61,967 nt of DNA from Folioceros fuciformis (Eukaryota): NCBI GenBank assembly GCA_049999805.1, contig JBNGIO010005907.1, positions 1 to 61,967 on the forward strand, written 5' to 3'. Made by a program: the position numbers and the translations under genes. The notes beneath the pieces are model-generated. The model was not told where the DNA came from. It was given only the letters and a program-made list of their open reading frames with translations, and did no database searches. This document shows, piece after piece, positions 3,351 through 61,967 of the stretch. Positions within the stretch are counted from its first letter, which is position 1, and each line of letters begins with the position of its first letter.

Positions 3351-3986
3351 GTGCCAATTCTCCATCAAGTGAAACCAGCAATGTGTTAGATATGTGAATG
3401 TGTTAAAGGTGTTGAATGTAAAGAGGCTCCAGTCTCCAATAGTGAAGTTGACCTATATCCGAACTATGCTAGCTTTGGTTTGAACTTTGAATAGTTTTGA
3501 ACTTGAAAATTCAACAAATGGATGACAACATAGAGATTTTAATGAAGAGATATAAAATTCAACAAATGATGTGACTATAATATTTTATATGGATATTTTA
3601 ATGAAAAATATATATTTCACATAAAGTGAGAAAGAATTATGTATTAAGCAATCCATCATATTTGAAGGTCACTTGGTTATTATTCGCTGCCTTCATTAGG
3701 AGTATTTGATGAACAAGTTTCTTTGCATCCCTTGGTTCAAATTTCTCAAACCCCGTTTGGGTTTAATGTTAAATAATCGGGGGCTGGCTTGAGATTGGAG
3801 CTTCCGAATTCAAAGAAACTGTTGAAATGGAAGGATCACGCAGCCTTATGTGAGCTCTGCGCTCTCTCCTTGAGCGTATGGTGTACACACCACCTTCTCC
3901 AGGGTGAGGAATCTCACCTCTATTCAGGCATACCTTCACAGTCCCGATTGTTGCATCTCTACTCCGAGCAGCTATTGCAGTGCACC

Positions 3987-8630: not shown

Positions 8631-8700
8631 GGTTGCGCATGCCTCACTTGGGAAGGGCCCTCAATTGGGTCTACATGGGCGAAGACATACCAAGTGAGCA

Positions 8701-11985: not shown

Positions 11986-12023
11986 CCAACAGGCGGGGAA
12001 GAGAAATGGGATTGGAACTCCAG

Positions 12024-13907
12024 TCAGATTCTCTGCAGCTGTTTATTCAAGCTTCTGAGCAAGCTGTACAGAGGTGCTTCTTCTTGTGGTCTGTGGTGCC
12101 TGTTGTCTCCGACAAAAAAAGTGCGCACCTCCTGTCGGAGCTCTATCCAACTCTGCGCAGGCTGCTTCCATGCCCCTGCTCTTCGTCTTAGCTCATCTAC
12201 GTCCTTGGCGTGTTCCCACATGCCAGCTTCAGAGTAGATGTTGCACATCATCAAATAGGCTGACGCTCGCTCTGGCTCTAACGTAACAGAACTCTCAAAG
12301 GCACGCTTGCCTAGCTCAACATTGCTATGCTTCCGGCAGGCTCCTAGCAGAGACAACCATACACGTAGGTCAGGCTGCATTGGCATCTCTGAAATGATGC
12401 TTTCTGCCTTACTGAAGAGTCCAGCGCGGGCAACAAGATCAATCACACAGGCATAGTGCTCAAGCTCGGGAGAAATGCCATGATCTATGGCCATTGTTTC
12501 AAAATACTGCAGACCTCTGGCCACCAAGCCAGCATTGCAGCACGCAGAGAGAATTGCCAAAAATGTGACCCTGTTTGGTTTCACCCCGGTCTCAGTCATG
12601 TTCGCAAAGCACTGCACACTAGAGTGCACATCTCCTTGCCTGGCATAACCGGCAATTAAAGCAGTGCATGAAACCACATCCGGCTGCGTCAACGAGTCAA
12701 ACACCTTGTGAGCATCCACCATGCTTCCACATTTGCCAAAAGTGTGAATCAGACTATTGGCCACAACCAGATTGGAAGCTAATCCACTTTCCAGAATTTC
12801 TTTCTGAACGTGCTTACAGACGTCCAAGGCTCCTGTGCAGCTGCATGCTTGTAGTGCATACAAGACCGTAGCCTCATCTATCCCCATGCCCTCTTCCCGC
12901 ATTTTCTTGTAGATGTGCAAGGCCTTTTCCCAGTGCCCCAGCCCCACATATGCTACCATCATGACTCGCCATAACACCACGTCTCGTTTGGACAATCCGT
13001 CAAACACTTTCTGTGCATCCTCTATGCTTCCGCACTTCGCGTACACGCTGACCAACGTGCTTCCCACAAACACATCCGATCCATAACCCAGCTCAACAGC
13101 TTGTGCATGCAATTCCTTCCCCTTGTGCAGCGATTCCACTTTGACGTCCTGCCTGTGTACACGTGCACCCACCTCCCTCTCTGCCTGGCTCCCACATGCT
13201 TGGAGAACACTCACAAAGGTTCGATCATCTGGGCGCACACCACTTCTTCGCATATGCCCGTACAGCTGCAAGGCCAAATCTGATCTCTCCTGCTGAGCAT
13301 ATGCTCCAAGTATGGCGTTCCACGACACAACATCTCTCGTCGACAATGTGTCGAACACCTTTTGCGCGTCGCTGATGCTCCCACACTTGGCATACATACT
13401 CACCAGAGTGTTACCCACAAACACATCCGACTCAAGCCCTCGCCTTCGAGCGTCATCATGAACACGCCTCCCCTCCTCCAGATCTCCTAGCCTGCTGCAT
13501 GCCTTCAGCACGCTGACAAACGTGTACTTGTTGGCGAGCTCACCCTCCAGTTGCATCTGCTGATAGCACACGAGAGCCTGCCGGCATAGCCCCGCATTGC
13601 TGTACCCTGAGATGATGGCCGTCCAAGCAAACACTGACCGGTGGGACAGTCTGTAAAACACACACAGCCCATCTCCTAGGCCGCCGCAGGTGACCAGCGT
13701 GGTCACGGCAAGGTTGCCCAGAAGCTTGTTGGATTCCAGCCCATGTTTTGCTAGATGGGAGTGTACTTGTCTGGCCTCCGCCAGATCCTTCTTCTTCATG
13801 CATTCCTGCAGCAGACTTCTGTATAGGTGGACCGCAGGCACACTGCCCTCCAGATCTGCCTGCGCCAGGGCAGACAGCGCATGGTTGAGCCCCAAAAGCT
13901 CAACCAT
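12024..13907 (-). CDS. PLS-class PPR protein, E/E+ type (truncated DYW, no deaminase site), with one long-L motif
   Basis: PLS array ending WKQPAQSWIE...TFFVGD...LQRI*, with no HxE or CxxC. L-motif insertion QAEREVGARVHRQDVKVESL. Confidence 0.9.
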   Translation of the reverse strand: MVELLGLNHALSALAQADLEGSVPAVHLYRSLLQECMKKKDLAEARQVHSHLAKHGLESNKLLGNLAVTTLVTCGGLGDGLCVFYRLSHRSVFAWTAIISGYSNAGLCRQALVCYQQMQLEGELANKYTFVSVLKACSRLGDLEEGRRVHDDARRRGLESDVFVGNTLVSMYAKCGSISDAQKVFDTLSTRDVVSWNAILGAYAQQERSDLALQLYGHMRRSGVRPDDRTFVSVLQACGSQAEREVGARVHRQDVKVESLHKGKELHAQAVELGYGSDVFVGSTLVSVYAKCGSIEDAQKVFDGLSKRDVVLWRVMMVAYVGLGHWEKALHIYKKMREEGMGIDEATVLYALQACSCTGALDVCKHVQKEILESGLASNLVVANSLIHTFGKCGSMVDAHKVFDSLTQPDVVSCTALIAGYARQGDVHSSVQCFANMTETGVKPNRVTFLAILSACCNAGLVARGLQYFETMAIDHGISPELEHYACVIDLVARAGLFSKAESIISEMPMQPDLRVWLSLLGACRKHSNVELGKRAFESSVTLEPERASAYLMMCNIYSEAGMWEHAKDVDELRRRAGAWKQPAQSWIELRQEVRTFFVGDNRHHRPQEEAPLYSLLRSLNKQLQRI

Positions 13908-14115
13908 TTGACCATCAGCTCATCCCCCAACAATCTGCGGAGTAAATCCGGACTTGCCGTTCTTTCCTGCTTGCTTGCTTTACGCTTGCACCATCAACTG
14001 CATGCTTTGAACTCATGTTGAGTTCCAGGATTCTCCATCAAAATCCAAAGCTGACTCTAGGTTGAGCATCAGTATCCCTACCTCCATGTGGGCATGAAAG
14101 GTAACCTTGTATCCC

Positions 14116-16761
14116 ATGGTGGTACTAATGTCCATGGAGGTGTATGCCACCTGCACATCTCAGGTTGATTCTGTCAGGGCCAGTGAAGTTGAATATCTGT
14201 GCAAGGAAGGGCAGTTGGACAAGGCCTTGGGTATCCTGTTTGGTTTAAAACAGCAGGGCACAGTGCACATGTACAAGAGCCTCTTACAGGCGTGCATGAA
14301 GAAGAAGTCCCTTGCCAAGGCTAGGCGGGTACATGACCATTTGGCCAAGCATGGGTTGGAGTCGGACAGATTATTGGGGAACCTTGTCGTCACCACGCTT
14401 GTGAACTGTGGAAACCTTACAGACGGACTCAGTCTGTTCCGGAGGCTGTCGCATCGCACAGTTTTCTCGTGGACTGCCATCATCACAGGGTACAGTAATG
14501 CTGGACACGAACGGAAGGCCCTGTCATGCTACCACCTAATGCAGCAAGAAGGTGTGCATCCCGACAAGTATACTATTGTCAGCTTGCTCAAGGCATGTAG
14601 TCGGTTAGGAGACCTGATAGAGGGCAGGCGTGTCCATGGCGATGCTGTCAGATACGGGATGGAGTCGGACGTTTTCGTGGGTAACACTTTGGTTATTATG
14701 TATGCGAAGTGCGGGGGCATCGTGGATGCACAAAAGGTCTTTGATGGCTTGTCTGAGCGTGATGTGGTGTCATGGAATGTGATGCTTGCAGCATACGCTC
14801 AGCAGGGCCAAGGAGAGAAGGCACTGAGAATTTATGAGCAAATGCAGAAGAATGGGATTAGACCAGATGATCGGACATTTGTCGGTGCCTTGCAAGCCTG
14901 TGGCACCCTTGCAGAGAGGGAGAAAAGTGCAATGGTGCATGGGTACAACGTCAAGGTGGAGTCACTGCGGAAAGGAAAGGAACTACATACTGAAGTTGCT
15001 CGGTTGGGCTTCGTCTCCGATATGTTTGTTGCTACTACGTTGGTTAGTATGTATGCGAAGTGTGGGAGCATCGTGGATGCACAACAGGTGTTTGACACGT
15101 TGTCCCAGCGTAGTGTTGTGACATGGAATGCAATGCTTGCAGCATATGCCCACCAGGCTGAAGGGGAAAAGACCCTGAAAATCTATCAGCAAATGCGAAT
15201 GGAAGGCGTGCGGCCAGATGCTTGGACCTTTGTCAGCGTCCTCCAAGCATGTGGCAGCCTTGCAGAAAAACAGAACAGCGTTGCTGTGCAAGGTGCCGAA
15301 GTGGCCTTGCTGCATGTGGTGGAAGAGATACATGCAGAGGTTGTTCGGCTGGGTTACGAAAAGGATTTGTTTGTTGCCAATGCCCTGATATCAACGTTTG
15401 CAAAGTGCGGGAGCATCAAGCATTCACGAGGAGTGTTTGACGATATGCCTGTTCGTGACTTAGTGTCATGGAATTCTATCGTCGGGGCATATGCTCAGAA
15501 CGAGGAAGCAGAGAATGCCCTGCAGGTTTATGCGCAGATGCAAGCGCAAGGTTTCAAGCCGAATGCTCGTACCTTAGCCAGTGCTATCCAAGCATGTGGG
15601 ACCCTCGCAGAGAATGAGGAAGGTGCCCTGGTACATGGTCAAACTCTTAAAGTGGTATCCCTGCAAAAAGGGGAGGAACTACATCGTGAAGCTGCTAAGC
15701 TGGGCTGTGGGTCAGATGTGTTTGTGGGTAGCAGTTTGGTGAGCATGTATGCCAAATGTGGCAGCTTTAAGGATGCAGAAAATGTGTTTCACAGTTTGTC
15801 CCAGCGTGATGTTGTTGCTTGGAATGCATTTCTTGCGGCATGTGCTCGTGAAGAGCAGGGAGAGATGGCTTTGCACATCTATTTCAAAATGCAGCAGGAT
15901 GGCATGATAGTGGATCACGCTACGTTTGTTTCCGTTCTAGGAGCTTGTAGCAGCATAGGAGACCTAGATGCCTGCAGGCATACTCACCAGAGTATTCTGA
16001 GACGTGGGATGGAGTGCAACCTTTTTGTGGCAACTAGCTTAATTCATGCTTACAGCAGATGTGGAAGTATGAGGAATGCTCAAAACGTGTTCGACTCGTT
16101 ACCGCATTCTGACGTTGTGTCTTGCAATGCACTACTGGCTGGGTATGCTCGACAAGGAGACTCTGATGCGTGTATACGATGCTACAACGACATGAGTATA
16201 AAAGGCCAAAAACCAAATAGGGTGACATTTCTGGCTCTTCTTTCTGCATGCAGTCATGCTGGCAGGGTGGACAGAGGTCTAGAGTACTTCGAGAGCATGA
16301 CCAGGGACCATGGCATTGCTGCGGAACTGGCGCACTTTGTGTGTGTAATTGACCTTGTTGGGCGTGCAGGACTCTTCCGCCAAGCAGAAGACCTTGTCTT
16401 GAATATGCCTATGCAGCCTAATTTTTCTATTTGGCTGTGTTTATTAGGTGCCTGTCAAAAGCATGGCAATGTGACACTGGGAAGACGTGCCTTCGATCAT
16501 GCCGTGGCTCTAGATCCAGAACAAGGTGCAGCATATGTCCTCATGTTTAATATCTATGCTGATACTGGGATGTGGGACCATGCCAAGGAAATAGACGAAA
16601 GGAGGAGGGAAGCAGGTGCTCGGAAGCAGCCTGGCAAAAGCTGGATAAAGCATGGGCAGGACGTGCACACATTTCTAGCCCAGGATTGCAGGTATCTCCA
16701 AGACGATCTGCACAGCTTCCTCGTCAGGTTGAACTCACAGCTGACCGGAGCAGGTTATTGA
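14116..16761 (+). CDS. PLS-class PPR protein, E/E+ type (PG-box, truncated DYW), with three long-L motifs
   Basis: PLS array ending KQPGKSWIK...HTFLAQD...TGAGY*. First in-frame ATG is at 14116. Confidence 0.9.
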   Translation: MVVLMSMEVYATCTSQVDSVRASEVEYLCKEGQLDKALGILFGLKQQGTVHMYKSLLQACMKKKSLAKARRVHDHLAKHGLESDRLLGNLVVTTLVNCGNLTDGLSLFRRLSHRTVFSWTAIITGYSNAGHERKALSCYHLMQQEGVHPDKYTIVSLLKACSRLGDLIEGRRVHGDAVRYGMESDVFVGNTLVIMYAKCGGIVDAQKVFDGLSERDVVSWNVMLAAYAQQGQGEKALRIYEQMQKNGIRPDDRTFVGALQACGTLAEREKSAMVHGYNVKVESLRKGKELHTEVARLGFVSDMFVATTLVSMYAKCGSIVDAQQVFDTLSQRSVVTWNAMLAAYAHQAEGEKTLKIYQQMRMEGVRPDAWTFVSVLQACGSLAEKQNSVAVQGAEVALLHVVEEIHAEVVRLGYEKDLFVANALISTFAKCGSIKHSRGVFDDMPVRDLVSWNSIVGAYAQNEEAENALQVYAQMQAQGFKPNARTLASAIQACGTLAENEEGALVHGQTLKVVSLQKGEELHREAAKLGCGSDVFVGSSLVSMYAKCGSFKDAENVFHSLSQRDVVAWNAFLAACAREEQGEMALHIYFKMQQDGMIVDHATFVSVLGACSSIGDLDACRHTHQSILRRGMECNLFVATSLIHAYSRCGSMRNAQNVFDSLPHSDVVSCNALLAGYARQGDSDACIRCYNDMSIKGQKPNRVTFLALLSACSHAGRVDRGLEYFESMTRDHGIAAELAHFVCVIDLVGRAGLFRQAEDLVLNMPMQPNFSIWLCLLGACQKHGNVTLGRRAFDHAVALDPEQGAAYVLMFNIYADTGMWDHAKEIDERRREAGARKQPGKSWIKHGQDVHTFLAQDCRYLQDDLHSFLVRLNSQLTGAGY

Positions 16762-16872
16762 TCGACCTGTCCTGGGAACACATAAACTGTGCCACAAACC
16801 ATGGACCACGGAATTTCTGCTAGCAGTGACAGAATCATGTGGGTTTGCTCAAACGTACTTGAATTGCGCTTG

Positions 16873-19800
16873 TCAACTATGATCACCACATGAACAAAAT
16901 CCATCAACAAAATGGTGAACACGGTGTGCATCTCTAACTATGATCTCTCGCTTCTCAATCTTGGACATCATCTTCGTACCAGTATGGCAGTCATTGCACA
17001 TACGTAGATTTTTTGTCACGAGCAAAGTGGTGCCATCTGCAGTGTTCAGCAGACCATAGGCCAAAGCTAATTTCTCTGCATGACCACACAATGCATCTTC
17101 CTTGCCTTGGTCTGGTACAGGCTTCAGCACCCGCTCTGTATGTGGAAACTGCCTGCCTCCCTCTCCCAACTGCAAATTGGCACTCCGTAATTGCGAGGAA
17201 ATATCATCCCTCTCTTCTCCCACTGTAAACATGTGGACTTGACTGCCTACCTCGATCCATGCCCTTGCAGGCTTCTTGCAAGCGCCTGCAGACCTTCTCA
17301 AGCTTTCTATTCTCTCAACATCTGTCCACCTGCCAGCATTTGCATAAATGGATCCAAGAAGTACATACGCAGATGCATTCTGCCGATCTAACTCAATAAT
17401 CTGGTCAAAGCAGCGGTTCCCACGCTCAATGTCCCCATGGCTCTTACACGCACTCAATAGAGATGTCCAACCCACAATGTCCTTGTCACATTCCATGGTT
17501 GCCAGCAGATTTTCGGCTTCATCCAGGCGGCCTGATCTACCAAGAAGGTCAACCATACAATTGTAGTGATACCCAGTTGGTTGAATGCCGTGGTCTTCCT
17601 CCATCATCCTAAAAACCTGCTGACCGTCATTCACCAAACCCTGATGACTGCACGCCATCAAAAGACAACTAAAAGTGGTGGCATTGGGCTGAACTCCCTG
17701 ATGTTGCATCTGGTGGAAATAATGCATTGCCATTTGACTATCATTGTGCAGACCGTAGCCATTTACCAAAGCCGTCCACGTGACAACATCTTTCGTGGGC
17801 AAACTGTCGAACACTCTCTGAGCATCTGGCAGACTGCCGCATTTTGCATACATGTCCACCAAGCTGTTCCCAAGAACCAGATCAGTTTCTACATTTCTCT
17901 CCTGGATCTGGTTATGGATCTGCTTACCCTGATCCAGAGCTCCAACGCTGGCGCAGGCTTTCAGAAGGCATAGAAATGTGACATTATCGCCTGGAGATAT
18001 GCCCTCCTGCAGCATAGCCGCATACAGATTAAGGGCGTCGTGACCAAGCCCATACTCTGCATAAGCTGCGATCAGGGCAGTCCAGACACTCACATCCCTT
18101 GTCGGCAACCTGTCAAATACTCTGCGGGCATCCTCTACGCTGCCACATTTAGCATACATATCCACCAGGCAGTTCCCGAGCACCACATCTGCTGCCAGTC
18201 CTCTTTCCTGAATCTGGCAATGAAGCTGCTTCCCCTCATGTAAAGCTCCAATGCTGCCACAGGCATTCAAGAGGCACACAAATGTAACCCGATTGGCAGG
18301 AGTAACGCCCTCCTGTTGCATGGTCGCATACAGCGCCAGGGCTTCTTGTCCTAGTCCATGCCTGGCATATCCGGCAATCATGGCAGTCCAAGTCACCACA
18401 TCTTTTGTGGCCAGTCTGTCAAACTGTAGACGAGCATCAATTAGACTACCGCATTTTGCATACATGTCTACCAGGCTGTTGCTAACAACCACATCATGCT
18501 CTAGACCTCTCTCCTTGATCTGTGAATGAAGCTCCTTGCCTTGATGCAAAGCTCCAATGCTGGCACATGCCTTGAGAAGGCAGGCGAATGTGACACGGTC
18601 AGCTGCAATATTGCCCTCCAGCTGCATACTTTCATAAAGGCTTAGAGCTTGTTGACCGAGACCCTGATGAGCGTATCCGGTAAGCATGGCATTCCAGGTT
18701 ATTACATCTTTAATGGGCAGTCTGTCAAACACCGCACGAGCATCCTCTAAGCTGCCACACTTTGCATACATGTCAACCAGGCTGTTGGCAACTACCAAGT
18801 CACCTTCAAGTCCTTTTTTCTCTACCAGAGAATGGAGCTGCTTGCCCTGGTGTAAAGCTCCGAGGCTTGCACATGCTTTCAGGAGGCATGTCAGTGTAAC
18901 ATGATCAGGCTGAACGTCCTCATCTTCCATAATTGAGTACAGCGTGAGAGCTTCTTGGGCAAGGCCATGTTGAGCATAGCCTGCGAGCATGACATTCCAA
19001 GTAACCACATTTCTATCGCACAGATGGTCGAATACTCTGCGAGCATCTTCTAAACTCCCACATTTCACATACATATCCACCAAGCTGCTACCGAGAAATA
19101 GGTCAACATCCACAGCAGTACCCAGAACATCAGCGTGAACCTGCTTGCCAGAAGCTAAATCTGACGCGTTAGCGCATGCCTTAAGAGCCGCCACAAAGGC
19201 ATAGTTATTCGGAGTTGTGCGCAGCTGTCGCATCTGTTGGTAGTAGGCAACAGCTGTTGCAGGCTGTTGAAGCTCAGCATGTGCCAAAATAATAGAAGCC
19301 CACATGAAGGAGTCAGGTGCATCAAGCTTCGAAAACACTTGCGTTGCTTCTTTCAACTGTCCATGGGAGGAATACATGCGAATAAGGTGGTTAGCCAGGA
19401 ATGTGCTCGAGTTGTAGCCATTTTCAGAAGTCAAGGCATGAAGCTGCTTGCCCGCAGCCAAATCACTCTCCGCACTGCATCCTTTCAGGACCAGATAATG
19501 CAGACATACGGGAATATAGTACCCTCTCTGCACCAAGCCGTCAAGTGCTTGGACTGCCTCATTCACATGTCCCAGCTGACACAGTTTACCCCATATTCCA
19601 CCCTCAAGGACTTCTTCATACCTGCAACAAGGTTTCTGGATTGTAAGATCAGCAAGAGCATCCTCACTTAAATTTCACTGCGAAGGAAGGAGGAGTAAGA
19701 AGTAACTTAACCTAGCGCTGCCAGGCTGCTGAGATGCACCACCTCTCGGATCTGGCCGGGCTTTCTCCTGCAGCCATGCATCAACCCACAAGGCATCCCT

Positions 19801-19908
19801 GGCTCCGGTGTGCAGGAAAAGGTGTCTCTGCAATGTGGCAACAATTAACTGCCCCACCCAGGTCTGCTTCGGGGGCCACCGAATGTTGCCAACCAGATGG
19901 CAAGGCAT
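16873..19908 (-). CDS. PLS-class PPR protein with DYW:KP domain (C-terminus DHS); predicted exons 19908-19712 and 19621-16873
   Basis: KKPARAWIE, HAEKLA, MCNDCH, CSCGDHS*. The upstream in-frame ORF joins through a 90-nt phase-2 GT-AG intron (19622-19711) that contains the in-frame TGA. Confidence 0.9.
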
Positions 19909-20499
19909 GAGTCCTGACACGGAACACCGGCTTGCACCTGTTGACCCACAAGTATGCAATATCTGGGAGCAGATCCCCGACAGTCAGCCCTGCAAGCAAC
20001 TGTTGTATTGAGGACTGCAGAGCTTCTTCCCTTCTCGAGAGAATGCGACAAAGAAAAGCAGAATTGCTTCAAAGAATCAACCTCCTAGAAAGGAAACATG
20101 CAACCACTCCCCCACCTAGATCAATTATGGACTTGTCTTGCTCCGCTGCAGCTGGCAGCGATAATCGCTGCCTGTTCCATCCCTCCCAATGGCTTGGAAA
20201 ACTGGGTCTGATCCCGAACGGACTGGGCACAACGAAATCGTGGCCCCATATCTTCATGCGTGCAGACCCGCGATGGGGATCCCGCACAAACTAGGCATCG
20301 ACACACAGGCTTGCTACAGGCCTGCTCGACGTGTCCGAACAAGAGAATCGAAGACTAGCCAGTTCGTTTCTCCAGAGTGATCACAGAATTTGCTTCCTAC
20401 TTGGACTGTGAAAGACGGCGCCTGAAAGCAACATGGACTGCTCTGGTGTGGGGAGAGTCTCTTCATTTGGGAACGAGAGGGGAACCTGAAGCGCAGGTG

Positions 20500-23400
20500 A
20501 TGGCGGAGCCGGCACTACTGGGCACGCTCCCGCTGCCCTCTTCGGTAGTCCCGGATACCACGGAAGCCGTGATCAATCAAGACCGGATTCAATCAAGCTT
20601 CTCTCGTTCCGACCTCTGGCACAGAACTTCCAAGGAGACAGTGTGGCTGAACAACTCTGGCAAGCCTCTGTCCCAGCTGATCAGCTTTGATGCTCAATTC
20701 TCATGCACCACCAGAATCCTGAAACAGGAGAGTGGCCTTTGTAAGGATACATGGTATCAAGAACGTTCACTGGTTGAGTCCCTACAGAAGCGTTGTGAGG
20801 AGGGAGAGCTAGATGAGGCGGTGGAAGCATTGAATGTACTGGTGGATCGAGGATGCCGTGTCAGCGTCGCTCTCTTCTATCGGATTCTGAAGAGGTGTAC
20901 TACACACAAGGACTTGCTTCTCGGTACTCGGGTCCATGCTCTTGCTGTGAGAAATGGATACGAGTCAAACTCATTCTTGGCTAACCATCTCATTTGTATG
21001 TATACCTCCCTTGAGAGATTGGAGGAGGCCATGCGTGTCTTCTCCAAGGTTCCCGCACCAAATGTGTACATGTGGACGTCCATCATCCTGGCGCATGTCA
21101 GACATGGATTTCCCAAAGAGGCCACGAGCCTGTACCGACAGATGCGGGATTCAAGTGCCAGGTCTGACAATCATATATTTGTGGCAGTACTCAAAGCGTG
21201 TGCAGCCGCTGGAGATTTGGTTTTTGGCGAGGAAGTTCATGCTGATATTTTGAGGAGTGGTGTGAAGCCTGATGCCTTTGTCGGCAGCAGCCTAGTGGAC
21301 ATGTACGCAAAATGTGGGAGCTTGGATAATGCTGCCCGAGTGTTTGAGGGCCTGCCCACCAAGAGTGTGGGTACTTGGACTGCCCTGATTGCGGGCTATG
21401 TCCAGCTTGGGCTCGGTAAACAAGCTCTCGATCTTTATGCCAGGATGCAACTGGATGGGTTGGCTTTGGCCAATCGTGTTACATTCGTGTGTCTTCTGCA
21501 AGCATGTGGCAACATGGGAGCCCTTCACCAGGGCAAGCAACTGCACGCACAGATTCAAGAAGGAGCAGTGGCAGTTGACCTCATGATAGGCAATTGCTTG
21601 GTGGACATGTATTCAAAGTGCGGGAGCTTGGATGATGCTCGCAGGGTCTTTGACGGATTGCTCAGCAAAGACGTGGTTACTTGGAATTCCATGATTGCAG
21701 GATACACACACCAAGGGCTTGGCCATGAAGCCCTTGCTTTGTATAGAAGTATGCAGCAGGAGGGATTGAGTTCAGCTACACCTGTGACGTTTGTTTGCCT
21801 CCTTCAAGCATGTGCCTATGTGGGGGAGCTACGTCAGGGCCAGCATATTCATGCGCAGATTCGTGAAAAGAATCTGGATACTGACATTCTTATTGGCAGG
21901 GGCTTGGTGAACATGTACTCCAAGTGTGGAAGCTTGGACGATGCTCGTAAGGTGTTTGACAGCTTACCCAGAAGAGACGTGGTGGCATGGACTTGTATGA
22001 TCACAGGGTGTATACAACAGGGGCTGAGTCATGAAGCAATTGCCCTGTACGACAGTATGCTCCAGGAAGGGATCACACAAGAGGACACATCTATTTTGTA
22101 TCGTGTGCTCAAGATGTGCTCTGAACAGAAGGATCTCTCTCTTGGCAGGAAGGTACATGCTCTAGTTATAAAAAGTGGGCAAGAGTCGAACACATTCTTG
22201 GCCAACCACATAATTGCCATGTATGCTTCTCATGGCAAATTGGAGGATGCGATGCAGGTTTTCACCAAAGCAAGTGTCGCGGATGCTCACATGTGGACGA
22301 CAATCATTTGGGCACACGCAAGGAATGGACAGCCCACTCAGGCAATCAGCCTTTATGAACAGATGCGAGATTGGCATGTGGAGCCAGACAATCATACATT
22401 CGTAGCAGTCCTCTGGGCATGTGCTGCCGCAGAGGATCTGGCTTCAGGACAGGAAGTGCATTCTGATGTTTTAAAGAGTGTTGCTGACGTTGATACGTTC
22501 GTTGGCAACAGCCTGGTGAGCATGTACGCAAAATGTGGCAGCTTGGAGGATGCTCGCAGAGTGTTCGACAGTCTATGCATAAAGGATGTGGTTACATGGA
22601 ATGCCATGTTTGCAGGATACACGAAGCACGGGCTGGGTCATGAGGCCCTGGCTCTGAATGAAAGTATGCAGCAACAGGGGGATACCGTGCCCACGCATGC
22701 AACCTTTGTTTGCCTCCTTAAAGCTTGTGCCGCCGTTGGAGCCTTGAGTCAGGGTAAGGAGCTTCATAGACAGATTCAGGGAAGAGGCCTGGAGGCTGAT
22801 GTGCCCATCGGCAGCAGCCTAGTGGACATGTACGCGAAATGTGGGAGCTTGGAAGATGCACAGACAGTTTTCCAACACATGCCCAGCCGTAATGTGGTGA
22901 CGTGGGGTGCGCTGCTCAATGGCTACGCCGAACACGGCTACGGTGATGAGGCAATCCATTGTTTCAAGGAGATGCTTCAGCAAGGTGTGGAGCCTGATGA
23001 GACCATCTTCATCAGCCTCCTCGTAGCCTGCAGCCATGCAGGATTGGTGCATGAGGGACTGCACTACTTCAGGGTTATGGTGGACGAGCACGGCATTGCG
23101 CCGAGCCAATATCACTACAACTGCATTGTCGATCTTCTGGGGCGCTCAGGATTCCTAGACGAGGCAGAAGAAATCCTTCTCCAAACTGCCCCTTCTGATA
23201 GTCTGGTGGTCGGGTGGACATCCTTATTGAGCGCCTGCAAAAGCCAGGGCCACGCAGAGCTTGGACAGCGATGCTTCGAGCGACTGGTAGCAATGGAGCC
23301 TGCAAATGCCAGTGCATACGTTCTCCTGGGCAACATGTATGCGCATGCTGGCAGGTGGAAGGATGTCGAAGAAACAGAACGCTTGCGAAATCAAGCAGGT

Positions 23401-23811
23401 GCGTGGAAGAAGCCTGCCAGGGCATGCATTGAAGTGAACAGGAGGGTGCACGAATTCACAGTAGGAGAGGACAGGGCTGACATCTCCTCGAAGGTGAGGG
23501 GAATGAACAAAAGGCTGAAAGAGGAAGGCGGCCATGTGCCACAAACTGAGTTGGTCCTGAAGGCAGTGTCCTTGCTGGAGAAGGAAGAGGCCCTGTGTGG
23601 ACACGCCGAAAAACTGGCTCTGGCATACGGTCTCCTGTATTCTCCCGATGGCTCATCCTTGCTTGTGACTAAAAATCTTCGCATGTGCAACGACTGCCAT
23701 AGCAGCACCAAGGTGATGTCTCGGCTGGAGAAGCGAGAGATCATCGTCAGGGACGCGCAGAGAGTGCACCGATTCCGGGATGGCTCTTGCTCGTGTGGCG
23801 ACAGGCATTGA
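20500..23811 (+). CDS. PLS-class PPR protein with DYW:KP domain (C-terminus DRH) and an internally duplicated array
   Basis: WKKPARACIE, HAEKLA, MCNDCH, CSCGDRH*. First ATG is at 20500; an upstream exon is possible. Confidence 0.93.
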   Translation: MAEPALLGTLPLPSSVVPDTTEAVINQDRIQSSFSRSDLWHRTSKETVWLNNSGKPLSQLISFDAQFSCTTRILKQESGLCKDTWYQERSLVESLQKRCEEGELDEAVEALNVLVDRGCRVSVALFYRILKRCTTHKDLLLGTRVHALAVRNGYESNSFLANHLICMYTSLERLEEAMRVFSKVPAPNVYMWTSIILAHVRHGFPKEATSLYRQMRDSSARSDNHIFVAVLKACAAAGDLVFGEEVHADILRSGVKPDAFVGSSLVDMYAKCGSLDNAARVFEGLPTKSVGTWTALIAGYVQLGLGKQALDLYARMQLDGLALANRVTFVCLLQACGNMGALHQGKQLHAQIQEGAVAVDLMIGNCLVDMYSKCGSLDDARRVFDGLLSKDVVTWNSMIAGYTHQGLGHEALALYRSMQQEGLSSATPVTFVCLLQACAYVGELRQGQHIHAQIREKNLDTDILIGRGLVNMYSKCGSLDDARKVFDSLPRRDVVAWTCMITGCIQQGLSHEAIALYDSMLQEGITQEDTSILYRVLKMCSEQKDLSLGRKVHALVIKSGQESNTFLANHIIAMYASHGKLEDAMQVFTKASVADAHMWTTIIWAHARNGQPTQAISLYEQMRDWHVEPDNHTFVAVLWACAAAEDLASGQEVHSDVLKSVADVDTFVGNSLVSMYAKCGSLEDARRVFDSLCIKDVVTWNAMFAGYTKHGLGHEALALNESMQQQGDTVPTHATFVCLLKACAAVGALSQGKELHRQIQGRGLEADVPIGSSLVDMYAKCGSLEDAQTVFQHMPSRNVVTWGALLNGYAEHGYGDEAIHCFKEMLQQGVEPDETIFISLLVACSHAGLVHEGLHYFRVMVDEHGIAPSQYHYNCIVDLLGRSGFLDEAEEILLQTAPSDSLVVGWTSLLSACKSQGHAELGQRCFERLVAMEPANASAYVLLGNMYAHAGRWKDVEETERLRNQAGAWKKPARACIEVNRRVHEFTVGEDRADISSKVRGMNKRLKEEGGHVPQTELVLKAVSLLEKEEALCGHAEKLALAYGLLYSPDGSSLLVTKNLRMCNDCHSSTKVMSRLEKREIIVRDAQRVHRFRDGSCSCGDRH

Positions 23812-51847: not shown

Positions 51848-54800
51848 ATGGCTAATCCTCCACCTGCAAATGTCACTGTCAACAACTTTAAGTATCACTT
51901 CAAGGATAGAGATAGGTTTAGTGGTCAACACTTCGACATCTGGATGATTCGAGTGCGGACCATCTTACAAGAACTGGAGATCTGGGACTACGTGACTGGC
52001 ATCATTCCAATGCCTCCAACTGCTGCAACTACAGCTGAAAAACAAGCTTGGAAACTGAAAGACTTGCGTGTCCAGAATGTGATCCAGTCTGCATTAGACT
52101 TGAGCATGATGTCTCATGCTCGAGAGGCAGACAGCTCCAAGGCAATTTGGGACTCTCTCTGCCAAGTGCACCAAAAGAAGAGCGTAACATCACTGGTTCA
52201 TGCTACACGTGCCTTCTACAATCTGAGAATGCGAGATGTGATACTGTTGAGAATCATGTCAGCCGCTTCAAGATGCGTCACACCAAACTAATTACTGCCG
52301 GCACAACTGTTGATGAACTCCAAGCTGCAGTGCCCCTTCTCATGTCACTTCCAGAGAAATACAACAGCTTTGTGAGCACTCAAAATCAGCACATCTCAGC
52401 TGCCCAAGCAGCAGTAGCCGCAGGCACACCTTCACCAATCACATTATCAGATATTATTGGTGCTCTGCTGAACGAGGAGGCTACTCACACTCGTGGCCGA
52501 GGCTCCTCCTCCAACAATGCTGCACGAGCCATGTTTGTCTCTCGAGGACGAGGACGGCGTGCTCCAGGTGGCAATCGTCCACCTTATAAGCCCGGCTCTC
52601 CTCGCCCATCATGGCCAGCCTCGAAGTCAAGCACTTCAAAGAGAGGTCCATGTACCTGGTGCAGGACTCCTGGCCACGTGGAGTCTGAATGCCGCAAGAA
52701 GCAGAATGGCGAAGCCAAGAGAGAGGCTCCTCCATCTCCCCATGTATCCTCCAAGAAAAGTACAAGGGCCATCCTCACAGTATGCATGGTCTTCTCTTCA
52801 CTAGATAGGCATGCCTGGTATCTAGATTCAGGTGCCACAACACATGTCTGCAACACACGCACAACCTTCACCACTTTCATACCTTCTCCTAAGGGACAGT
52901 TTGTACTCCTAGGCGATGATAGTGGGCTGTGTATAGAAGGCACTGGCACCGTTGTCCTCCAACTTGCACAAGGTAAGTCCATCACATTGTTAGATGTTAT
53001 ATACGTCCCTCAGATGGCTAAAAATCTTGTCTCTCTTAGACGATTGTCACCTCCGTTACTTACCCTTGAAATGACCTTGGAGGGTCTTGCCCTGAGAGAG
53101 GCTGCTGCTCCACATAAGTTACTGGCTACATGTACTCTCAAGAATGACCTGTACCAGTTTAACTTGAAGAGCAATCCCATCCAGCAGCTGAAGGCACCAA
53201 CGGCCCATTCTGCAGTAACAACTCCAACTAATGAGACACAGTTATGGCACTGCCGCGTGGGACATGTTCATTTACAACATCTTCAGACTCTGCCATCTTC
53301 TTCCTTGTATCGGACGCCATTTCACTTCAAATCAGAGAAGACTATCTTCTGTGAAGCCTGCATCCAAGGAAAGCACCATAAGGCTCCCCATCCAAGTCAA
53401 GATGCCACAAGAGCAACTACCCTGCTTCAGACTGTGCACATTGACCAGTGCGAACCCATGTCCACTAGATCTCTCGGGGGTGCTCTCTATTTCATGCACT
53501 TGATTGATGACTGGAGTCGGTTCACTGTTACTTATTTTCTCAAGCGTAAAGATGAAGCATTCTCTTGCTTCCTTCTGTACCTCGCCTATGCTCAACGCTT
53601 TATAGGTCAGAAACTGAAATGCTTGAGAAGTGACAATGGAGGTGAGTTTACCTCAGAGGAATTCACGGAGTTTTGCTCACGAGAGGGTATACTTCGCCAA
53701 CTTACAGTTCCCTACGAGCATGAGCAAAATCCTCTCCCTAAGAATCAAAATAAAGTCACTCAGGCTGCTGCCAAGTCGATGCTGCATTTGGCCCGGCTTC
53801 CTCAAAGCTTCTGGGCTGAAGCTGTTGCCACTACTATTTACATACAAAACCGGCTACCCACTCGTGCCTTTGCCAATACTACACCTTTTGAAAGATGGAC
53901 TGGCGTCAAGCCTCGAGTGGACCACTTGCGGATATGGGGCTGTCCAGCCTACGTACATACACCTGATGAGGTTAGACGCAAGATGGATTTTAAGGCAACC
54001 AAGCACTTGTTCATCGGCTACACAGAAGGCATTAAGGGCTATAAGCTCTATGACCCCCTACGTCGACGTTTCCTGCATGCCAGAAACGTTATATTCGACG
54101 AGCAGTTTCTGTTGCAAGCCTCAAGAAAGAGCAGAGATGTACCTAGTTTAGAGCGTCTTACGAATGCTGACCAGGATGCATCTACAACAGAATCTTTAAC
54201 ACATGATGAACATGTGGTCACTCCACAACCTGCACCAACTGTCCCTGTTCAATGTGCAGACGTCTTTCCTAAAGATGAACCTGACCTCACTGCAGATGAT
54301 TCGAGCTCGGAGGCAAGTGACCAGTCTGGTGAGACCCAACAGGAGGATTATGACAATGTGGTCAATGACAGTCCCCCATCTTCGCCCTCACCAGAAATTG
54401 AGGAGAATGTTGAGGAACCTGCATCCGAGGATGTGGAAGAGTCAACTCATGAGCGACCAGCACTTAGAAGGTCTGGTAGGAGGCACACCACAGACCCAAG
54501 TCAGTGGACACACAAACCTCTAAGCTATGAACTGGACGAAGAGTTTCGACACCAGCAAGTAAATCTTGCTGCCAGTCCAGACAGCTCCTTACCTCACGAG
54601 TCAAACACACCATACAGCTATGTTGCCCACGCCTTGTTTGCAGCACAGGACCTTGGAGAGCCAGCCACTTTAAAGGAGGCGTTGTCTTCCCCTGAAGGCA
54701 AACTTTGGAAAGCTGGTGTCGACTCTGAATACCAGTCCCTCATTGACAACAACATGTGGGAGCTGGTTGAACTGCCTCCAGGGGCTAAGCCACTTACAGG

Positions 54801-55985
54801 AAAGTGGGTTTTTCAGAAGAAGCTTAATCCAGATGGGTCAGTAGCCAGGTACAAGGCCAGGTATGTTGTCCATGGCTATAAACAAGTTGAAGGTCTGGAT
54901 TTCAACGAAACCTTCTCACCTGTGGTACGGGTGTCATCAGTTAGAATGCTATTTGCCTTGCCTGCTGAACACAAGCTGGACATCCATCACATGGATGTTA
55001 AAACCGCCTTCCTGCATGGCACAATCGACAAAGAGATGTATATTACGCAACCCGAGGGCTATGTCAGTAAAACCGAACCACATAAGGTTTGCAGACTTAA
55101 GAAAAGCCTGTACGGCTTGAAGCATGCACCGAGAGTATGGTACTAGAAGATCCATGCCTACCTACTCAAGTTTGATTGCAGTCAAAGTGATGCTGACACA
55201 AATGTCTAAATACTTAGAATTGGGCAACAGTTTGCAATCATAGCTTTGTATGTCGATTGATGCACTCATCTTTGCCAACTCCCCTAGCATCATGAAGAAA
55301 GTCAAGTCAATCCTCATGGCCGAGTTTTCCATGACAGATCTAGGGCAGTTGACCTTCTTCCTAGGCATACAGATCCTAATCAGTCCCGACAAAGGTAGTA
55401 TCTTCTATCACCAAGCTCACTACATTAGACAAATGCTAGAAAGATTTATTATGACTGACTGCAAACCTGCTATCACCCCAATGGCTGTGGGAGAAAAGTA
55501 CTCTATTGAGCAAAGTCCGAAGACTAAAGCAGCAAAATAGGAAATGGCAAAGAAGCCATACAGCATGCTCACGGGGTGCCTTATCTGGATCAGAGGGTGG
55601 ACAAGACCGAATGTATCTCTAGCAACCAGTAGCCCTGTCTAGCACTGAAGCGAAATACACAGCTGCAACCGCAGCTGCTCTGGAGATTGTTTACAACTGC
55701 CTATTCATGGCATCTGTGGGCTCTCCTCAACCTGGAGCTACTATTGTATATTGCGACAACCAGTCAGCCATAGCTCTATCCAGAAATCCAGCGCATCATT
55801 CACGGACCAGGCATATAGCTGTCAAGCAGCATTACATCAGGCAGACAGTAGCATTAGGAGAAATTGACCTAGTTTACATACCCATAGATCAGAATCTAGC
55901 AAACTTGCTCTCGAAGCCACTACCAAAGGACCGTCACATCGCGCACTGCAAGGGCTTGGGGCTTTGCACTCAAGCAAGCTCTTGA
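51848..55985 (+). pseudogene. Copia gag-pol (frameshift near 52240, stops in RT, deletion between RT and RNase H)
   Basis: Zn knuckle CTWCRTPGHVESEC, protease WYLDSGATTH, integrase SDNGGEF, RT MDVKTAFLHG and RNase H IVYCDNQSAI. Confidence 0.92.
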
Positions 55986-56167
55986 CACCTGCACAACTAC
56001 ACAGCGCAAGCAGGAGCAAAAGGACGAAGCTTCCATCCAAGTGAGAAAGGCCGCCAACACTCAGCATAGCTGCAATCTGTGCTGCAGACAGAGCGCATGC
56101 AAAAAAAAAAAAGAGGACGGCCGGAGATTACGGCGTAAGCGAGTTCACAACGGCGGGAATGTAGTCT

Positions 56168-56411: not shown

Positions 56412-59400
56412 CATGAGACCCTCGTGAAACTGAAACAGAATTGGCCCAAGATCCTTTTTACAGGTTGCTTATGTTTAGGCGATTTCGGGATGAGATCCTT
56501 TTTACAAGTTGCTTGTGTTCCTTCTATTTCGGGATGGCACTGTTTGTACAGCGTTTTTGACCAGAGCTGTCGCTGAGACATGCTATGCCTTCTATTTTTG
56601 GATTGGGACTGCTTGTGAAAGCACTGCCACATTATTTCAAGGCCTAAGTATGGTTGATATAATCTGCTCTGCTACATTTGGCAAATAGTCGAACAACTAA
56701 GGCTAATGTGTCTATGCACTTATGTACACCCTTTCACAGTCTTGTGGCATTCTAGTTGTAGGACATACGGTAGGTAATTAAAGCTATGCTGAAACACATG
56801 TTCTCCTCTTGTGTAGGTATTGGTGCTCCGATGGACTTGAAGATTTTTTAGCAGCTACCATGCCTAGAAATGTTTGAATGAAGACTTGTTGTATGGCCAA
56901 TTTCATTGTAAAGCAATTGTTCATGTTTCTTGAAGTAGCTCAGATCATTCTTCACCAAGGAAAACATACAGATCGGGCTGTTGATGTTTGTCATAGTCCC
57001 TGTTATTATGGTCACCCCAAATTGTCAAGAGCCCCTTGGCTCTCAAAAGGCAAGAAGGACTAGGTAAAACATTGACTTTATTGCAAGGTTTCCGTCTCTG
57101 AAATTATGCACAGACATATTGCAATTGTGTATAAGAAGATGAGTCACTACATACATGGAGAGCACACCGAGGATGCTCATGATGATTACATGTAGCGAAA
57201 GGATGTCTTGAACATCAAACGATAGGTAGAAGCACATGAATGGAAGTTGCATTTTGATGATGCTCAGTCCTCTAACATGTGGTTGAAACTCCATCCTCAT
57301 ATTGTCTTCCATAGATCAGAACTGGATGAGCCTTTTGTTTTAGGGTTTCAAACTCCTTTTATGCGGCACATGTTGATCAAACATGGTAATAATAGTGTTT
57401 TAGTGATAGACGCGACATTCGGGTTGAATAAGTATAGGTATCATCTGTTCACTATCATGGTTTTTAATGACCACTTGAATGGTATTCCAATGGCATGGGC
57501 AGTAACCCAAGAAGCTACCATAATGTCTCTGGTGTCTTGGTTGGGGCCTCTCAAAAGGATTGCACTGAACACATGTTCTTTGTGGACGCTTAGTTGTTTT
57601 CTAATGGATGATTGTCTGGTAGAGATAGTTGCCTACAAACAGGTATGAGGGGTAAACACACATGTTGTTTTGTGCCTGTGGCATGTTAAAAAGGCATGGC
57701 AATGAAACCTTTTGAAGAAGGTTAAGTGTCCTATAGCAAGGAAGACGATATGAGCAACTCTTGCAGACATCATGTATGTTAGGGGTCACAAGACACAAGA
57801 TGAGACTGTAGCATGGGGCAAGGTGCTGTTGGAGTTTTTCTATAAGGAGAGGAGTGTTACTGAGCCAGGATTTGTTGACTACTTCTGGAAGCAGCGGGGA
57901 GACTCTATACGTAATATGTTGCAATGTTTAGGGTTAGTGTGAACTAGTTATATTGTTGCCTTTCGTCATTTTTGTTGACAAGGCTTGTTTTTGTTTCATA
58001 GAAATGTGGATGAAGAACTGTAGGGCATATCCTCATGTTGGGCAAGATACAACGTCTGCCTTGGAGGCTTTTCACCATGTTCTGAAAGAAAGAGTGTCAT
58101 TCACCAAAGCAGCATTGCCAGATAGGCGCAAGGAGTAGTTATTACATCAACTAGTGAACAAGATAGCCCGATATTATTGGTATCTTGATTTCACTAAGGC
58201 TGGAGGTTACAAGCCTAATTCAAAGTTGGAAAAGGTGTACAAAGATGTCGTTGGTGCAGCAAGCAGTATTGTAGACAAGGCTGTCATCTTTTCCACAACT
58301 GTTGGATCCACTGTTGCATATTGCATGTCATCTGATGACAATGATCACTTATATTGTATTAAAGCTGCACACTCTTCTTGGGCTTTTTGCTCATGTCGAA
58401 TGGGGCAGCGAGGTTTTCTATGCAAGCATGTCGTAAAGGTGCAACAGGTTTGTGGTATATTTGAAGAAACTTCTCAACTAGTACAGCTTTCTTGGTGTAC
58501 AATGGAGGATATGTTGTAGGGCAAGAGGGGGGATGTACTTTGCCCGACCTGAACTGCAATGCAATGAGTGATGAAGGCCAAGTATGCGACGGGCTAATGG
58601 ATAACGATCACGTGCTATGTAGTAATGAAGATGTGGCCACCCTTCATAGCAACCTGTCTAACTTGGCAAATTTGAGCATGAAACGACATCGGGGCTTGGA
58701 TGCCCTCTACATGAACATGCAGAGCATGGTTCAAGCCAATCCTGCTATCCTAGATGAGGCATATGCAATAATGAAGCATGCGCAAGGTCTCCTTATGCAG
58801 GTTTCAGCAAGGGTGGATGAAGCGTCAACCAACAAACCAGCCTTGGAAGAGATAGTTTCAAACAAAGGAATGAATAGGCTTATACGATTTAAAGGTATGG
58901 AAGAACGAGCACTACCCAAGAAGAAGAAAGAGACATGGAAACTATAGGTGTAGTTGTATGTTAGCCTGTTTTCGTTTCGTTTTGTTGGCCATGACCATGA
59001 AACTTGTGAGCAGTTCGCACCAGATGCCAAATCGTTGTCAGACTGGACAGCCCAAAACTTTTGATAGAAGATTTTGAACAGCCTAGATCACCTATTTCTT
59101 GCAAACATGCAGACAATCACACACATGTGTAAACAATCGAACCAACCATGTTGCCAACACAAGAATGAATCCCTCCTACCTACATCATAGCTATGATCAC
59201 ATGTAATATAGCAATCGCGTAAAATATTGCTGGAAGAGAGATGTGTCCAAGATGATTGCACCTCCAGCCATTCAACAAAGGCTATGAAGGAATAGGCAAA
59301 TCCAACGGAGCACTCAGCAAGAGTGAACAACACCACCCACCATTGAACTACAGGCTCTTGTAGGTGGAAGCATGCTCATGCAACCAGGTTGGTACATGGC

Positions 59401-60509
59401 CTTGCCTTGCCTTTCGTGGTTCACCTCCAACACCTCCAAAGATTTGCGATACCCCCCTCCTCCTCGGTTACGGTTAAAACCAACGGTAAGCTGCAACCCA
59501 GCCGATTACATTAGCTTCCACGACGTGAGAGCATGCGCATAAGGTGAGGTTGCGGTTGGAGTAACATAGCCCTGCAACTCCGTAGTCCTTCAGGCATGTC
59601 CAAGAACCCGATGACCACCATTCGTGCTCCTCCCCTTCTACACCGTGACGCCATTCGCGTGCAATAGAGCAAATATGGACATTGTCAACCTTTTGCTGAT
59701 ACATTGGGCTTCCTCAGGCCTTTGCAACTTCCACCTCCACACCCAAGACAAGTTCCCCACAGGCTACCAATTCGAGGCACTAGAATCAGGAACTGCAGCA
59801 ACAGCAACAACCCTTCCGCTCATGCTGGTCACGTTTCCACTCTAGCTTATGATTTCCTCCCCGTATGTCAATTTCCGGCCGAATCTCCTCACTGTAGAGT
59901 CATTTGACCTCTTCCTCCTCTCCTAGTAGCAGCAATAGCCCTCCCACTCTTGCTACTCATGTTCCCACTCCATCTTGTGATTTCCTTCCTGTACAGTGAT
60001 TTCCGGCTGACTCTCCTCAATGGAGAGTCACTTGACCTCCTCCTCCTCTCCCCGAGGTGCCAGCTATGCAGGAAGCACTCCCATTGGCATTCCACCTCGT
60101 CACTCCTCAAACTCCTCTGCTTTCAAACGCTCCACCCTCCACAGGTGCACCCTTGTTGTAACCTCCAGACCTCTCGGATTTGGACTTGCTGAAATGTGCC
60201 CTCACTGAGCTCTTGAGATCAGAGTGCGGAAGGGAAAGGAGGGGAGGGGAGCCTAGAGGGACGTAGTGGCCTCCCTAGTTTGCAACGCCTACAACAACTA
60301 GCCCTAGCGAGAAACATCAAACCCCGGGCTTTCTTTCTCCGTAACTTGCCCAGGGTGTCTGCCACGGCATTGCCCATACCTCAAAAGACAAGCGAGAAGC
60401 TCTGGCACCTCCTTGACTGCAATGTTGCGCACCTTCTAGCTCCGGCTCCTTGCTCCGAGGTCTCCTTGCCTTCCTCCTCAAATAACCGTGCACGGTTTCA
60501 CGAGTTGAA

Positions 60510-60545
60510 CATGGTTTCATGGCTTAGACTGGGAGGTGGCAAAAC
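60510..60545 (-). repeat. Right terminal inverted repeat
   Basis: Inverted copy of 48441-48476. Confidence 0.8.
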
Positions 60546-61029
60546 TAGGTGATACAAGTATAGGCAATCGCTGTATGTGAAATTCACAAGTTCTGCGGCT
60601 AACGGTTGTATTCTATGAAGCCCGTTTGGTGCATATTTGAATTTACACCATCCTAGTCACATATCCACATTTAAGCTCTTTTTAAAAAAAATCACTTGTT
60701 TTGACGTGTGGTGGACACCATCCATCTCCACAAATTTGCTTGTAGCCCACAACCAACTGGTACATAAGTTATTGAAACTATAAAAATTTCTAAAAAAAAC
60801 GAATCGTACTTCGAGTGCGCCGGTCTACCGGTGCACTCAACAGCATGTTTGGGTGACAAGAAGTTGGCTATCTGCATGCCACAAATTTAAAGAGTTTAAC
60901 AGTCGAATTTAAATATACGCATAATATACCATGGACTTCAGCTACTCTCCAAATCACCTCTACACCAAAATATGAACGTCTTGGTTGGCCTCGGAATCGA
61001 CAACTATATCCACATCTTTCAAGCATTGG

Positions 61030-61967
61030 CCCTATGTGTTCCCGAAGTCGTCTCCCTCCATGTCCAGGATAGGAAAATGTGGGTCGTCCACAGTCTGAGG
61101 CGAAAGTGTGCCATTCTCATCCCATATCGTCATCGCGCAAAGATCTTCCACTAGTCTGTAATCCGATTGAGAAAATATCTCTCCTTTTTCCCCTAGCAAA
61201 CTGAATACCTGCATATTACGATCCACGCTACCGTCCGCGCAGACTTCTTTGGCCCAAAACTTCGTGGGCCCGTGCAAGAAGTGCTATGTGCTGATCTCCT
61301 CATCAGCGTCTGTCAAAGACCCTATACTGTTCACTCGTTGCATAATATAAGTCGTGCATCGTATATAAATGNNNNNNNNNNGTTGCATAATATAAGTCGT
61401 GCATCGTATATAAATGTCCATTGCGACATTATGCCTTCCTCTTTGAAAGTCAAAGACCCTATACTGTTCACTCGTTGCATAATATAAGTCGTGCATCATA
61501 TATCAATGTCCATTGCGACAACATGCCTTCCTCTTTGAATCGCAACCCTGAAGGAATGACCCAGATCCTACACGTGCATCCACTACCCAGTCTTCTTCAG
61601 CCGAAAACACATTGACCAACATACCCATTAACCCAAGGGCCTTTTGATACGGCGAGACGACCATAGAGTCTCGTGAGTGGAACAGATGTTTCTTTACCAC
61701 AACTCCATGCCTTATAACTCTCGGCAAAAGAAATCCCTGATTTGCGAATAATGCCGCTTTTGTGGCCTGAGCTTTAGAGTGAATTGCACTTCCAACAGTT
61801 AAATATTCCACAGTCTCAACTACCTCTACATTGGGAAGAATGTTGGTCTTCTTCCCATTAGTTTCTATGAAAGTGGCTGGAGCGCGTCGGTAGACAAGCA
61901 CAAACAAAGACCCATTCCAAAGATAATGGCTACGGTGCACCGGTCTAACAACGCACCCCTTCCACAA
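61030..61967 (-). pseudogene. Bacterial-type amino (N4C/N6A) DNA methyltransferase-like C-terminal fragment; runs off the window edge
   Basis: SPYQKALGLMGMLVNVFSAEEDWVVDARVGSGSFL, then after a frameshift RVAIQRGRHVVAMDID. This follows the beta-class N6_N4_Mtase pattern 'P.QKP..L...L....S..GD.VLDPF.GSG....A...GR..IG.E'. Confidence 0.6.
61312..61539. repeat. ~92-bp tandem duplication spanning an N gap
   Basis: gtcaaagaccctatactgttcactcgttgcataatataagtcgtgcatc occurs at 61312 and 61449, with a partial copy at 61382. Confidence 0.8.

Follow-up and report, generated by a model that had tools for sequence, protein, structure and literature searches.

A decayed beta-class amino-DNA methyltransferase in Folioceros fuciformis, probably the remnant of a transposon accessory gene with a ParB-like domain

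Why a DNA methyltransferase (MTase) of prokaryotic type should lie among plant genes and transposons, and what kind of gene it once belonged to, are the questions raised by one end of a contig from Folioceros fuciformis. The window, meaning the whole stretch of 61,967 nt analyzed here, carries on its minus strand at 61853-61284 the C-terminal half of a beta-class amino-DNA MTase. An original prediction, made from the sequence alone, had named this class and proposed a Pfam search of the translation as a check. When the translation is read through across a frameshift, N6_N4_Mtase (PF01555) is matched with E=1.2e-5 at 25.8 bits, a score for half a domain that lies just below the Pfam cut-off of 26.7 bits; the unbroken frame-1 ORF alone reaches E=0.17. 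The match falls on Pfam positions 163-212, with the SAM-binding motif I placed C-terminally, behind motif X, and the top PDB match is the beta-class enzyme M.RsrI (residues 221-271, E=0.13). An RNA or protein MTase as best match, the outcome said beforehand to speak against the assignment, was rejected, as FtsJ reached only E=0.064 compared with 1.2e-5 for N6_N4_Mtase.

A family profile of 252 positions places the sequence more closely. The native frame-1 piece scores about 63-65.7 bits against 9.9 for the best of 500 shuffles, a comparison made slightly circular by the fact that 4 of the 16 profile rows were first found with the window query, and no other segment of the window exceeds 5.7 bits. 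The read-through, which is not among the profile rows, reaches 97.7 bits while covering about 60% of the profile, above every one of 29 prokaryotic or viral MTases (at most 74.8 bits). Since the window copy spans profile positions 96-240 and the window stops short of motif IV, that motif is out of view, as had been anticipated; no motif IV-like word occurs in the last 167 window bases in any minus frame.

The peptides quoted in the prediction are present on the minus strand, ETVEYLTVG...SPYQKALGLMGMLVNVFSAEEDWVVDARVGSGSFL in frame 1 and RVAIQRGRHVVAMDID in frame 2. The frame-1 part (61551-61853, profile positions 96-195) runs from KKTN through SPYQK to motif I (DARVGSGS). SPYQK at 61641-61655 represents the motif X region, written [SN]PYQKP in relatives, and is distinct from a catalytic SPPY. 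The motif I region, DWVVDARVGSGS at 61557-61592, is identified by the family profile and by sister copies, and in other copies from the same genome it is nearer to the family consensus than in the window copy. Ahead of the frame-1 part, at 61854-61967, lies a segment without a profile match that is either an intron or diverged coding sequence; relatives have an intron here.

Beyond motif I the gene is broken. An extra base at 61545-61548 accounts for the frameshift that had been claimed near 61550; it is left out in at least 5+4 contigs of DNA run X1 and at least 3+3 of X2. The MTase then continues as VAIQRGRHVVAMDIDI (minus strand, 61499-61547) to a TGA stop at 61498-61496. A C-terminal part on the same strand (61032-61361) includes RVNSIGSLTDADEEI, which matches the family tail, followed by a tail without profile match, with TAG stops at 61286-61284 and 61034-61032; the second TAG is read through in sister copies, 7 contigs of X1 having A>C at 61034. 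Between these parts, at 61312-61539, a 92-bp unit is tandemly duplicated around a 10-N gap (61372-61381), its copies being 94-97% alike. Because the 35 bases on the two sides of the gap are identical, the gap-flanking part of the duplication is probably a scaffolding or assembly artefact, whereas the 92-bp copies, which differ by a few bases, may be real. One related contig in runs X1 and X2 skips the duplication altogether (joint 61360 to 61509). As many sister copies are without the extra base, 7 contigs of X1 without the 61034 stop, and one related contig without the duplication, these lesions belong to the window copy.

Those sister copies were seen by comparing the window with contigs of three DNA runs (X1, X2, and X3) of one sample. 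In X1, summed contig depth, which is no measure of copy number, is 240-510 over the body of a high-copy repeat containing the MTase (60492-61793), but no more than 19-154 in the bins between 56400 and 60491. A variant at 61594 is common to 26, 22, and 22 contigs of X1, X2, and X3, respectively, and there are therefore at least about 20 related copies of the window MTase in its genome. With its frameshift and stops, the window copy is thus one decayed member of a multicopy family, in line with the original view. The substitutions in run X3 (519 places with C>T plus G>A and 108 with A>G plus T>C, compared with 501 and 347 in X1) resemble those of a library prepared by bisulfite or enzymatic conversion, and one loose-end consensus at 61636 retains its CG and CCG cytosines, a hint of 5mC on sister copies. 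In run X4, presumed to be RNA, no contig matching the MTase was found.

To place the family, homologs were sought more widely. A phmmer search of 1.84 billion proteins returned four matches to the window protein, all four of them above the Pfam N6_N4_Mtase cut-off (44.5-56.4 bits), and a search with the alignment matched 18 proteins, 13 of which are family members. In a metagenome scan, 318 stretches were candidates and 197 of them were confirmed; the best 80 of the 197 were kept, comprising 71 plant-type and 9 prokaryotic loci. Fifteen similarly numbered assemblies, possibly from one host, contribute 67 of the 71 plant-type loci, and three other assemblies contribute the remaining four, which have the same motifs as the main set; in L020, L049, and L050, from these other assemblies, the same exon break precedes the KTN/KPN word. 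The plant-type relatives are taken to be plant DNA because of their GT-AG introns and the PPR and retrotransposon sequence beside them. They are collapsed repeat contigs, so that their intactness describes consensus copies and their flanks may be chimeric. Plant-type relatives that span the whole of the window copy are only 28-37% identical to it. No longer relative turned up in word-indexed searches of 356 and 8000 candidates, which is weak evidence.

In the plant-type relatives the MTase domain forms the end of a spliced fusion gene with a ParB-like domain. An in-frame splice model from ParB to MTase can be built in 29 of the 34 loci that hold both parts, with exact donor sites differing between models, and the GT-AG introns are conserved. 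The long exon carrying GGSH has a predicted ParB/Srx fold (model pLDDT 74.6): Foldseek gave Noc first (E=1.5e-4) and then ParB and sulfiredoxin, and comparison with VIA PadC gave Z=10.2 and an rmsd of 2.9 over 99 aligned residues. Fold searches alone succeeded here, Pfam, PHROGs, and PDB sequence searches giving no recognition of the exon. The AlphaFold model of P0003 (pLDDT 39.8) was unusable.

These fusion genes lie in DNA transposons. In five loci from three subfamilies (L021, L038, L042, L048, and L083), the ParB and MTase gene stands head-to-head with a transposase of the DUF7869 type, encoded by divergent, stop-free ORFs of 829-897 aa with conserved acidic motifs; the DUF7869 match reaches about E=1e-52 in the three ORFs scanned. 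All five full-length relatives have this partner. DUF7869 presumably covers the Sola transposases. The accessible parts of PMC5751038 and 10.1101/2021.09.26.461848 were of no help in placing the relatives' enzyme, for which phage matches and meaningful PDB sequence matches were likewise absent. L005 and L072, with transposase sequence downstream of the MTase, were read as nested or chimeric and left out of the five; in L027 the ParB gene is 5'-truncated and the transposase absent. In L059 (982-9610), from a different plant assembly, other sequence, about 7.7 kb long, interrupts a DIPH ParB and MTase gene, with Gypsy-like remains adjoining.

The elements measure about 7.6-8.6 kb. L038 has a 37-bp terminal inverted repeat, elements of two subfamilies end in AACAC...GTGTT, and in two subfamilies the right ends (12 of 12 and 12 of 16) stop at one sharp TGTT/GTGTT boundary with differing flanks. 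No target-site duplication was recovered among the elements, and it is unreadable there because the left and right flanks of the collapsed contigs mismatch. In two loci the space that separates the transposase from the ParB and MTase gene holds palindromic arrays (L083:4103-4300 and L042:3754-4075); the perfect or near-perfect palindromes in these arrays and at L038:3629-3669 are candidate parS-like sites. L021 is flanked by an ORF fragment without a Pfam match (3-539) and by a large inverted-repeat array (11738-14496). The idea of a family borne by mobile elements and retaining intact members is thus borne out in relatives from another plant, by terminal repeats and by 38 of 39 spliced MTase models being free of stops. 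On this evidence, the window sequence is probably the defunct 3' half of an accessory gene, carried by a transposon, in which a ParB/Srx-fold domain was fused to a beta-class amino-DNA MTase; its own family would have the architecture of the relatives, with a ParB and MTase gene, a DUF7869 transposase, and terminal inverted repeats.

The stop-free models fall into 21 groups at 90% DNA identity among the 38, and the dN/dS of the relatives' MTase has a median of 0.037 and a maximum of 0.105 in the 50 of 703 pairs with 0.1<dS<1.5. Judged from these ratios, the domain is under purifying selection in the relatives, which indicates that the element needs it and does not by itself imply catalysis. 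The catalytic motif differs from the [DS]PP[YF] that had been expected: plant-type loci have DIPY (49), DIPH (3), DIPS (1), or DVPY (1), and SPPY occurs in none of the 56 plant-type relatives whose sequence includes motif IV. Motif IV beginning with D usually goes with adenine methylation, with exceptions. DIPY is given as the catalytic motif IV of HindIII-like MTases in one figure legend of PMC12294265, and we would put catalysis by the DIPY relatives at slightly under an even chance. The two nearest proteins that reach motif IV both have DLPR, in which the aromatic residue is missing, and the window's own subfamily may therefore be catalytically altered; that it is catalytic appears unlikely.

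If the DIPY relatives are active, the ParB domain would presumably recognize palindromic repeats of its own element and the MTase would mark DNA near the element, most likely with N6-methyladenine because motif IV begins with D, in a way that would favor expression or transposition of the element against host 5mC silencing; such a mechanism has been put forward for algal elements too. A non-catalytic domain might instead act as a SAM- or DNA-binding module. That land-plant cut-and-paste transposons carry a live, ParB-guided amino-MTase writing 6mA (or 4mC) on or near their own element, where the mark would counter silencing or serve self-recognition, is a tentative proposal, and a doubtful one.

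How the MTase came to its present place can be read in other ways, of which a link to the neighboring transposase is the most immediate. A decayed MULE/SWIM transposase on the plus strand (56800-58947; Pfam MULE E=1.3e-9, SWIM E=1.2e-4) lies about 2 kb from the MTase, is the nearest transposase in the window, and could possibly form one element with it; a Mutator-like element (56.8-60.6 kb), rather than a DUF7869 element, would then carry the MTase as cargo in this genome. Homologs of such accessory genes are described on red-algal Mutator elements in the accessible portion of 10.1101/2025.02.11.637652, and the AACAC/GTGTT end is absent from its expected place: window positions 60000-61030 have no homology to the ends of the relatives' elements, and the window has no detectable ParB exon, DUF7869 transposase, or AACAC/GTGTT end. 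Against this, contig depth rises about tenfold at 60492, none of the contig pieces and joints listed connects the MULE sequence with the MTase, and CpG observed/expected values of 0.38 for MULE and 0.88 for the MTase region suggest separate histories; the DUF7869 partner of all five full-length relatives points the same way. No long inverted repeats were found around the MULE sequence. We regard Mutator cargo as improbable.

Dispersed, decayed pieces of a host gene domesticated to write 4mC or 6mA, of the MpDN4MT1 kind, would share the Pfam family and motif order seen here and would have a bryophyte precedent (10.1101/2021.02.12.428880, as far as its accessible text goes), yet at least 20 diverged copies, relatives that sit within elements with terminal repeats, and the lack of SPPY in any plant-type relative, set against TSPPY in MpDN4MT1, make such an origin very improbable. 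Bacterial or phage DNA, whether by contamination, recent transfer, or an endogenous virus, would explain a domain that is prokaryotic in type and whose homologs have bacterial and phage MTases as Atlas and PHROG neighbors. The locus, however, is contiguous with plant genes and plant transposable elements, its copies are multiple and diverged, the relatives have spliceosomal introns, and prokaryotic matches are mostly confined to the motif I region. In viral scans, none of 18 stretches was confirmed with the window protein and none of 45 with the ParB exon, the scan with the alignment recovering four ordinary phage-type MTases; the exon is without a viral relative and the transposase without a phage match. 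This origin is the least credible of those considered, and the remnant of a ParB and MTase accessory gene is the reading we retain.

The rest of the window has the character of plant DNA with many repeats. The minus strand at 59000-60640 may hold another ORF, decayed and convergent with that of the MULE transposase; the three frames of 59000-60700 on that strand gave no Pfam match, and a 2347-nt contig of the presumed RNA run X4 matches 60372-60546. A decayed Copia retrotransposon lies at 52039-55990 (Pfam matches to gag, integrase, and RT), and CpG observed/expected is 0.88 in 61030-61967 against 0.38-0.51 across the MULE, Copia, and gene regions. Further away, a single ORF at 3777-6353 encodes an 858-aa TPR and SET domain protein, and 8698-23811 holds a cluster of five long PPR genes, three with terminal DYW domains. 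Two of the DYW proteins have WKKPARAxIE and the endings DRP and DRH; they are of the DYW:KP type and are candidate U-to-C editing factors. According to the accessible part of PMC9478123, KP proteins are confined to hornworts, lycophytes, and ferns, and DRH is a hornwort variant; these genes thus make a hornwort the likely host.

In a tree of 24 rows chosen from 48, the window copy joins four Logan proteins with 92/90 support. The plant-type rows lie on one side of a branch with 72/63 support only, so that a common plant-type group is neither shown nor rejected, and the prokaryotic rows, except L001, fill less than half of the columns. In an earlier tree of 31 rows, three prokaryotic rows are nested among plant-type rows with weak support. 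MpDN4MT1 and N4CMT are in neither tree, and no prokaryotic donor can be named from the two.

Comparison with known systems gives the family its nearest parallel. The prediction had likened it to the rare eukaryotic acquisitions of Marchantia and bdelloid rotifers, whereas the closest described kind is the ParB and MTase accessory gene of algal transposons. In the accessible sections of PMC12477816, Sola1-1_Ec32 of Ectocarpus has a gene for a 1104-aa protein, ParB-like and N4C/N6A MTase in one, opposite the transposase; similar green- and red-algal proteins are cited there, and self-modification is proposed as a hypothesis. The likeness to the plant relatives, drawn from that description, lies in a ParB-like and amino-MTase fusion on the strand opposite the transposase of a cut-and-paste element; the algal element is 21.5 kb long compared with the land-plant elements of about 7.6-8.6 kb, and the window copy is a dead, truncated gene. 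The Plavaka (EnSpm) accessory genes PAG2 and PAG3 of Bostrychia and Chondrus, as covered in the accessible part of 10.1101/2025.02.11.637652, also combine a transposon-borne PF01555 methylase, a ParB-like domain, and inverted-repeat arrays by the ParB gene; they differ in being separate genes, with the MTase fused to SET and ParB to a 2OG oxygenase, on EnSpm or Mutator elements.

The Marchantia enzymes MpDN4MT1a/b and the Adineta enzyme N4CMT are likewise beta-class amino-MTases of prokaryotic type in eukaryotes, treated as independent acquisitions in the accessible parts of PMC8885841 and PMC12344493. Their writing of 4mC has been demonstrated and they are host genes by domestication, whereas the present family is transposon-borne, multicopy, and fused to ParB; DN4MT1 has TSPPY as motif IV (10.1101/2021.02.12.428880, accessible text) and no extra domain, and N4CMT has a chromodomain, in contrast to the DIPY or DLPR of the family described here. 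Bacterial beta-class N6-adenine MTases (M.RsrI, M.MboIIA, DpnA, and CcrM) share the motif order and the motif X/I region, and HindIII-type MTases share DIPY with the plant relatives; the plant family differs from bacterial beta-class enzymes in its introns, its transposon context, and the lack of a restriction partner. The accessible part of PMC4738411 lists no such land-plant MTase clade, and the literature searched, which leaves most subscription papers uncovered, holds no report of a land-plant ParB and MTase accessory gene. The arrangement is known from algae; its land-plant member appears to be new and differs from 4mC writers of the Marchantia or rotifer type.

In conclusion, the accessory-gene arrangement of ParB and MTase known from algae extends to land plants, and stop-free, conserved copies with a DIPY motif of catalytic type are numerous in at least one plant. 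The enzymatic origin of 6mA and 4mC in plant DNA is debated, and intact DIPY relatives within elements of defined anatomy are concrete candidates for assay. Should the family indeed include a live writer, non-5mC DNA methylation in plant nuclei would have a source encoded by transposons, and hosts would have at hand a supply of writers to domesticate.
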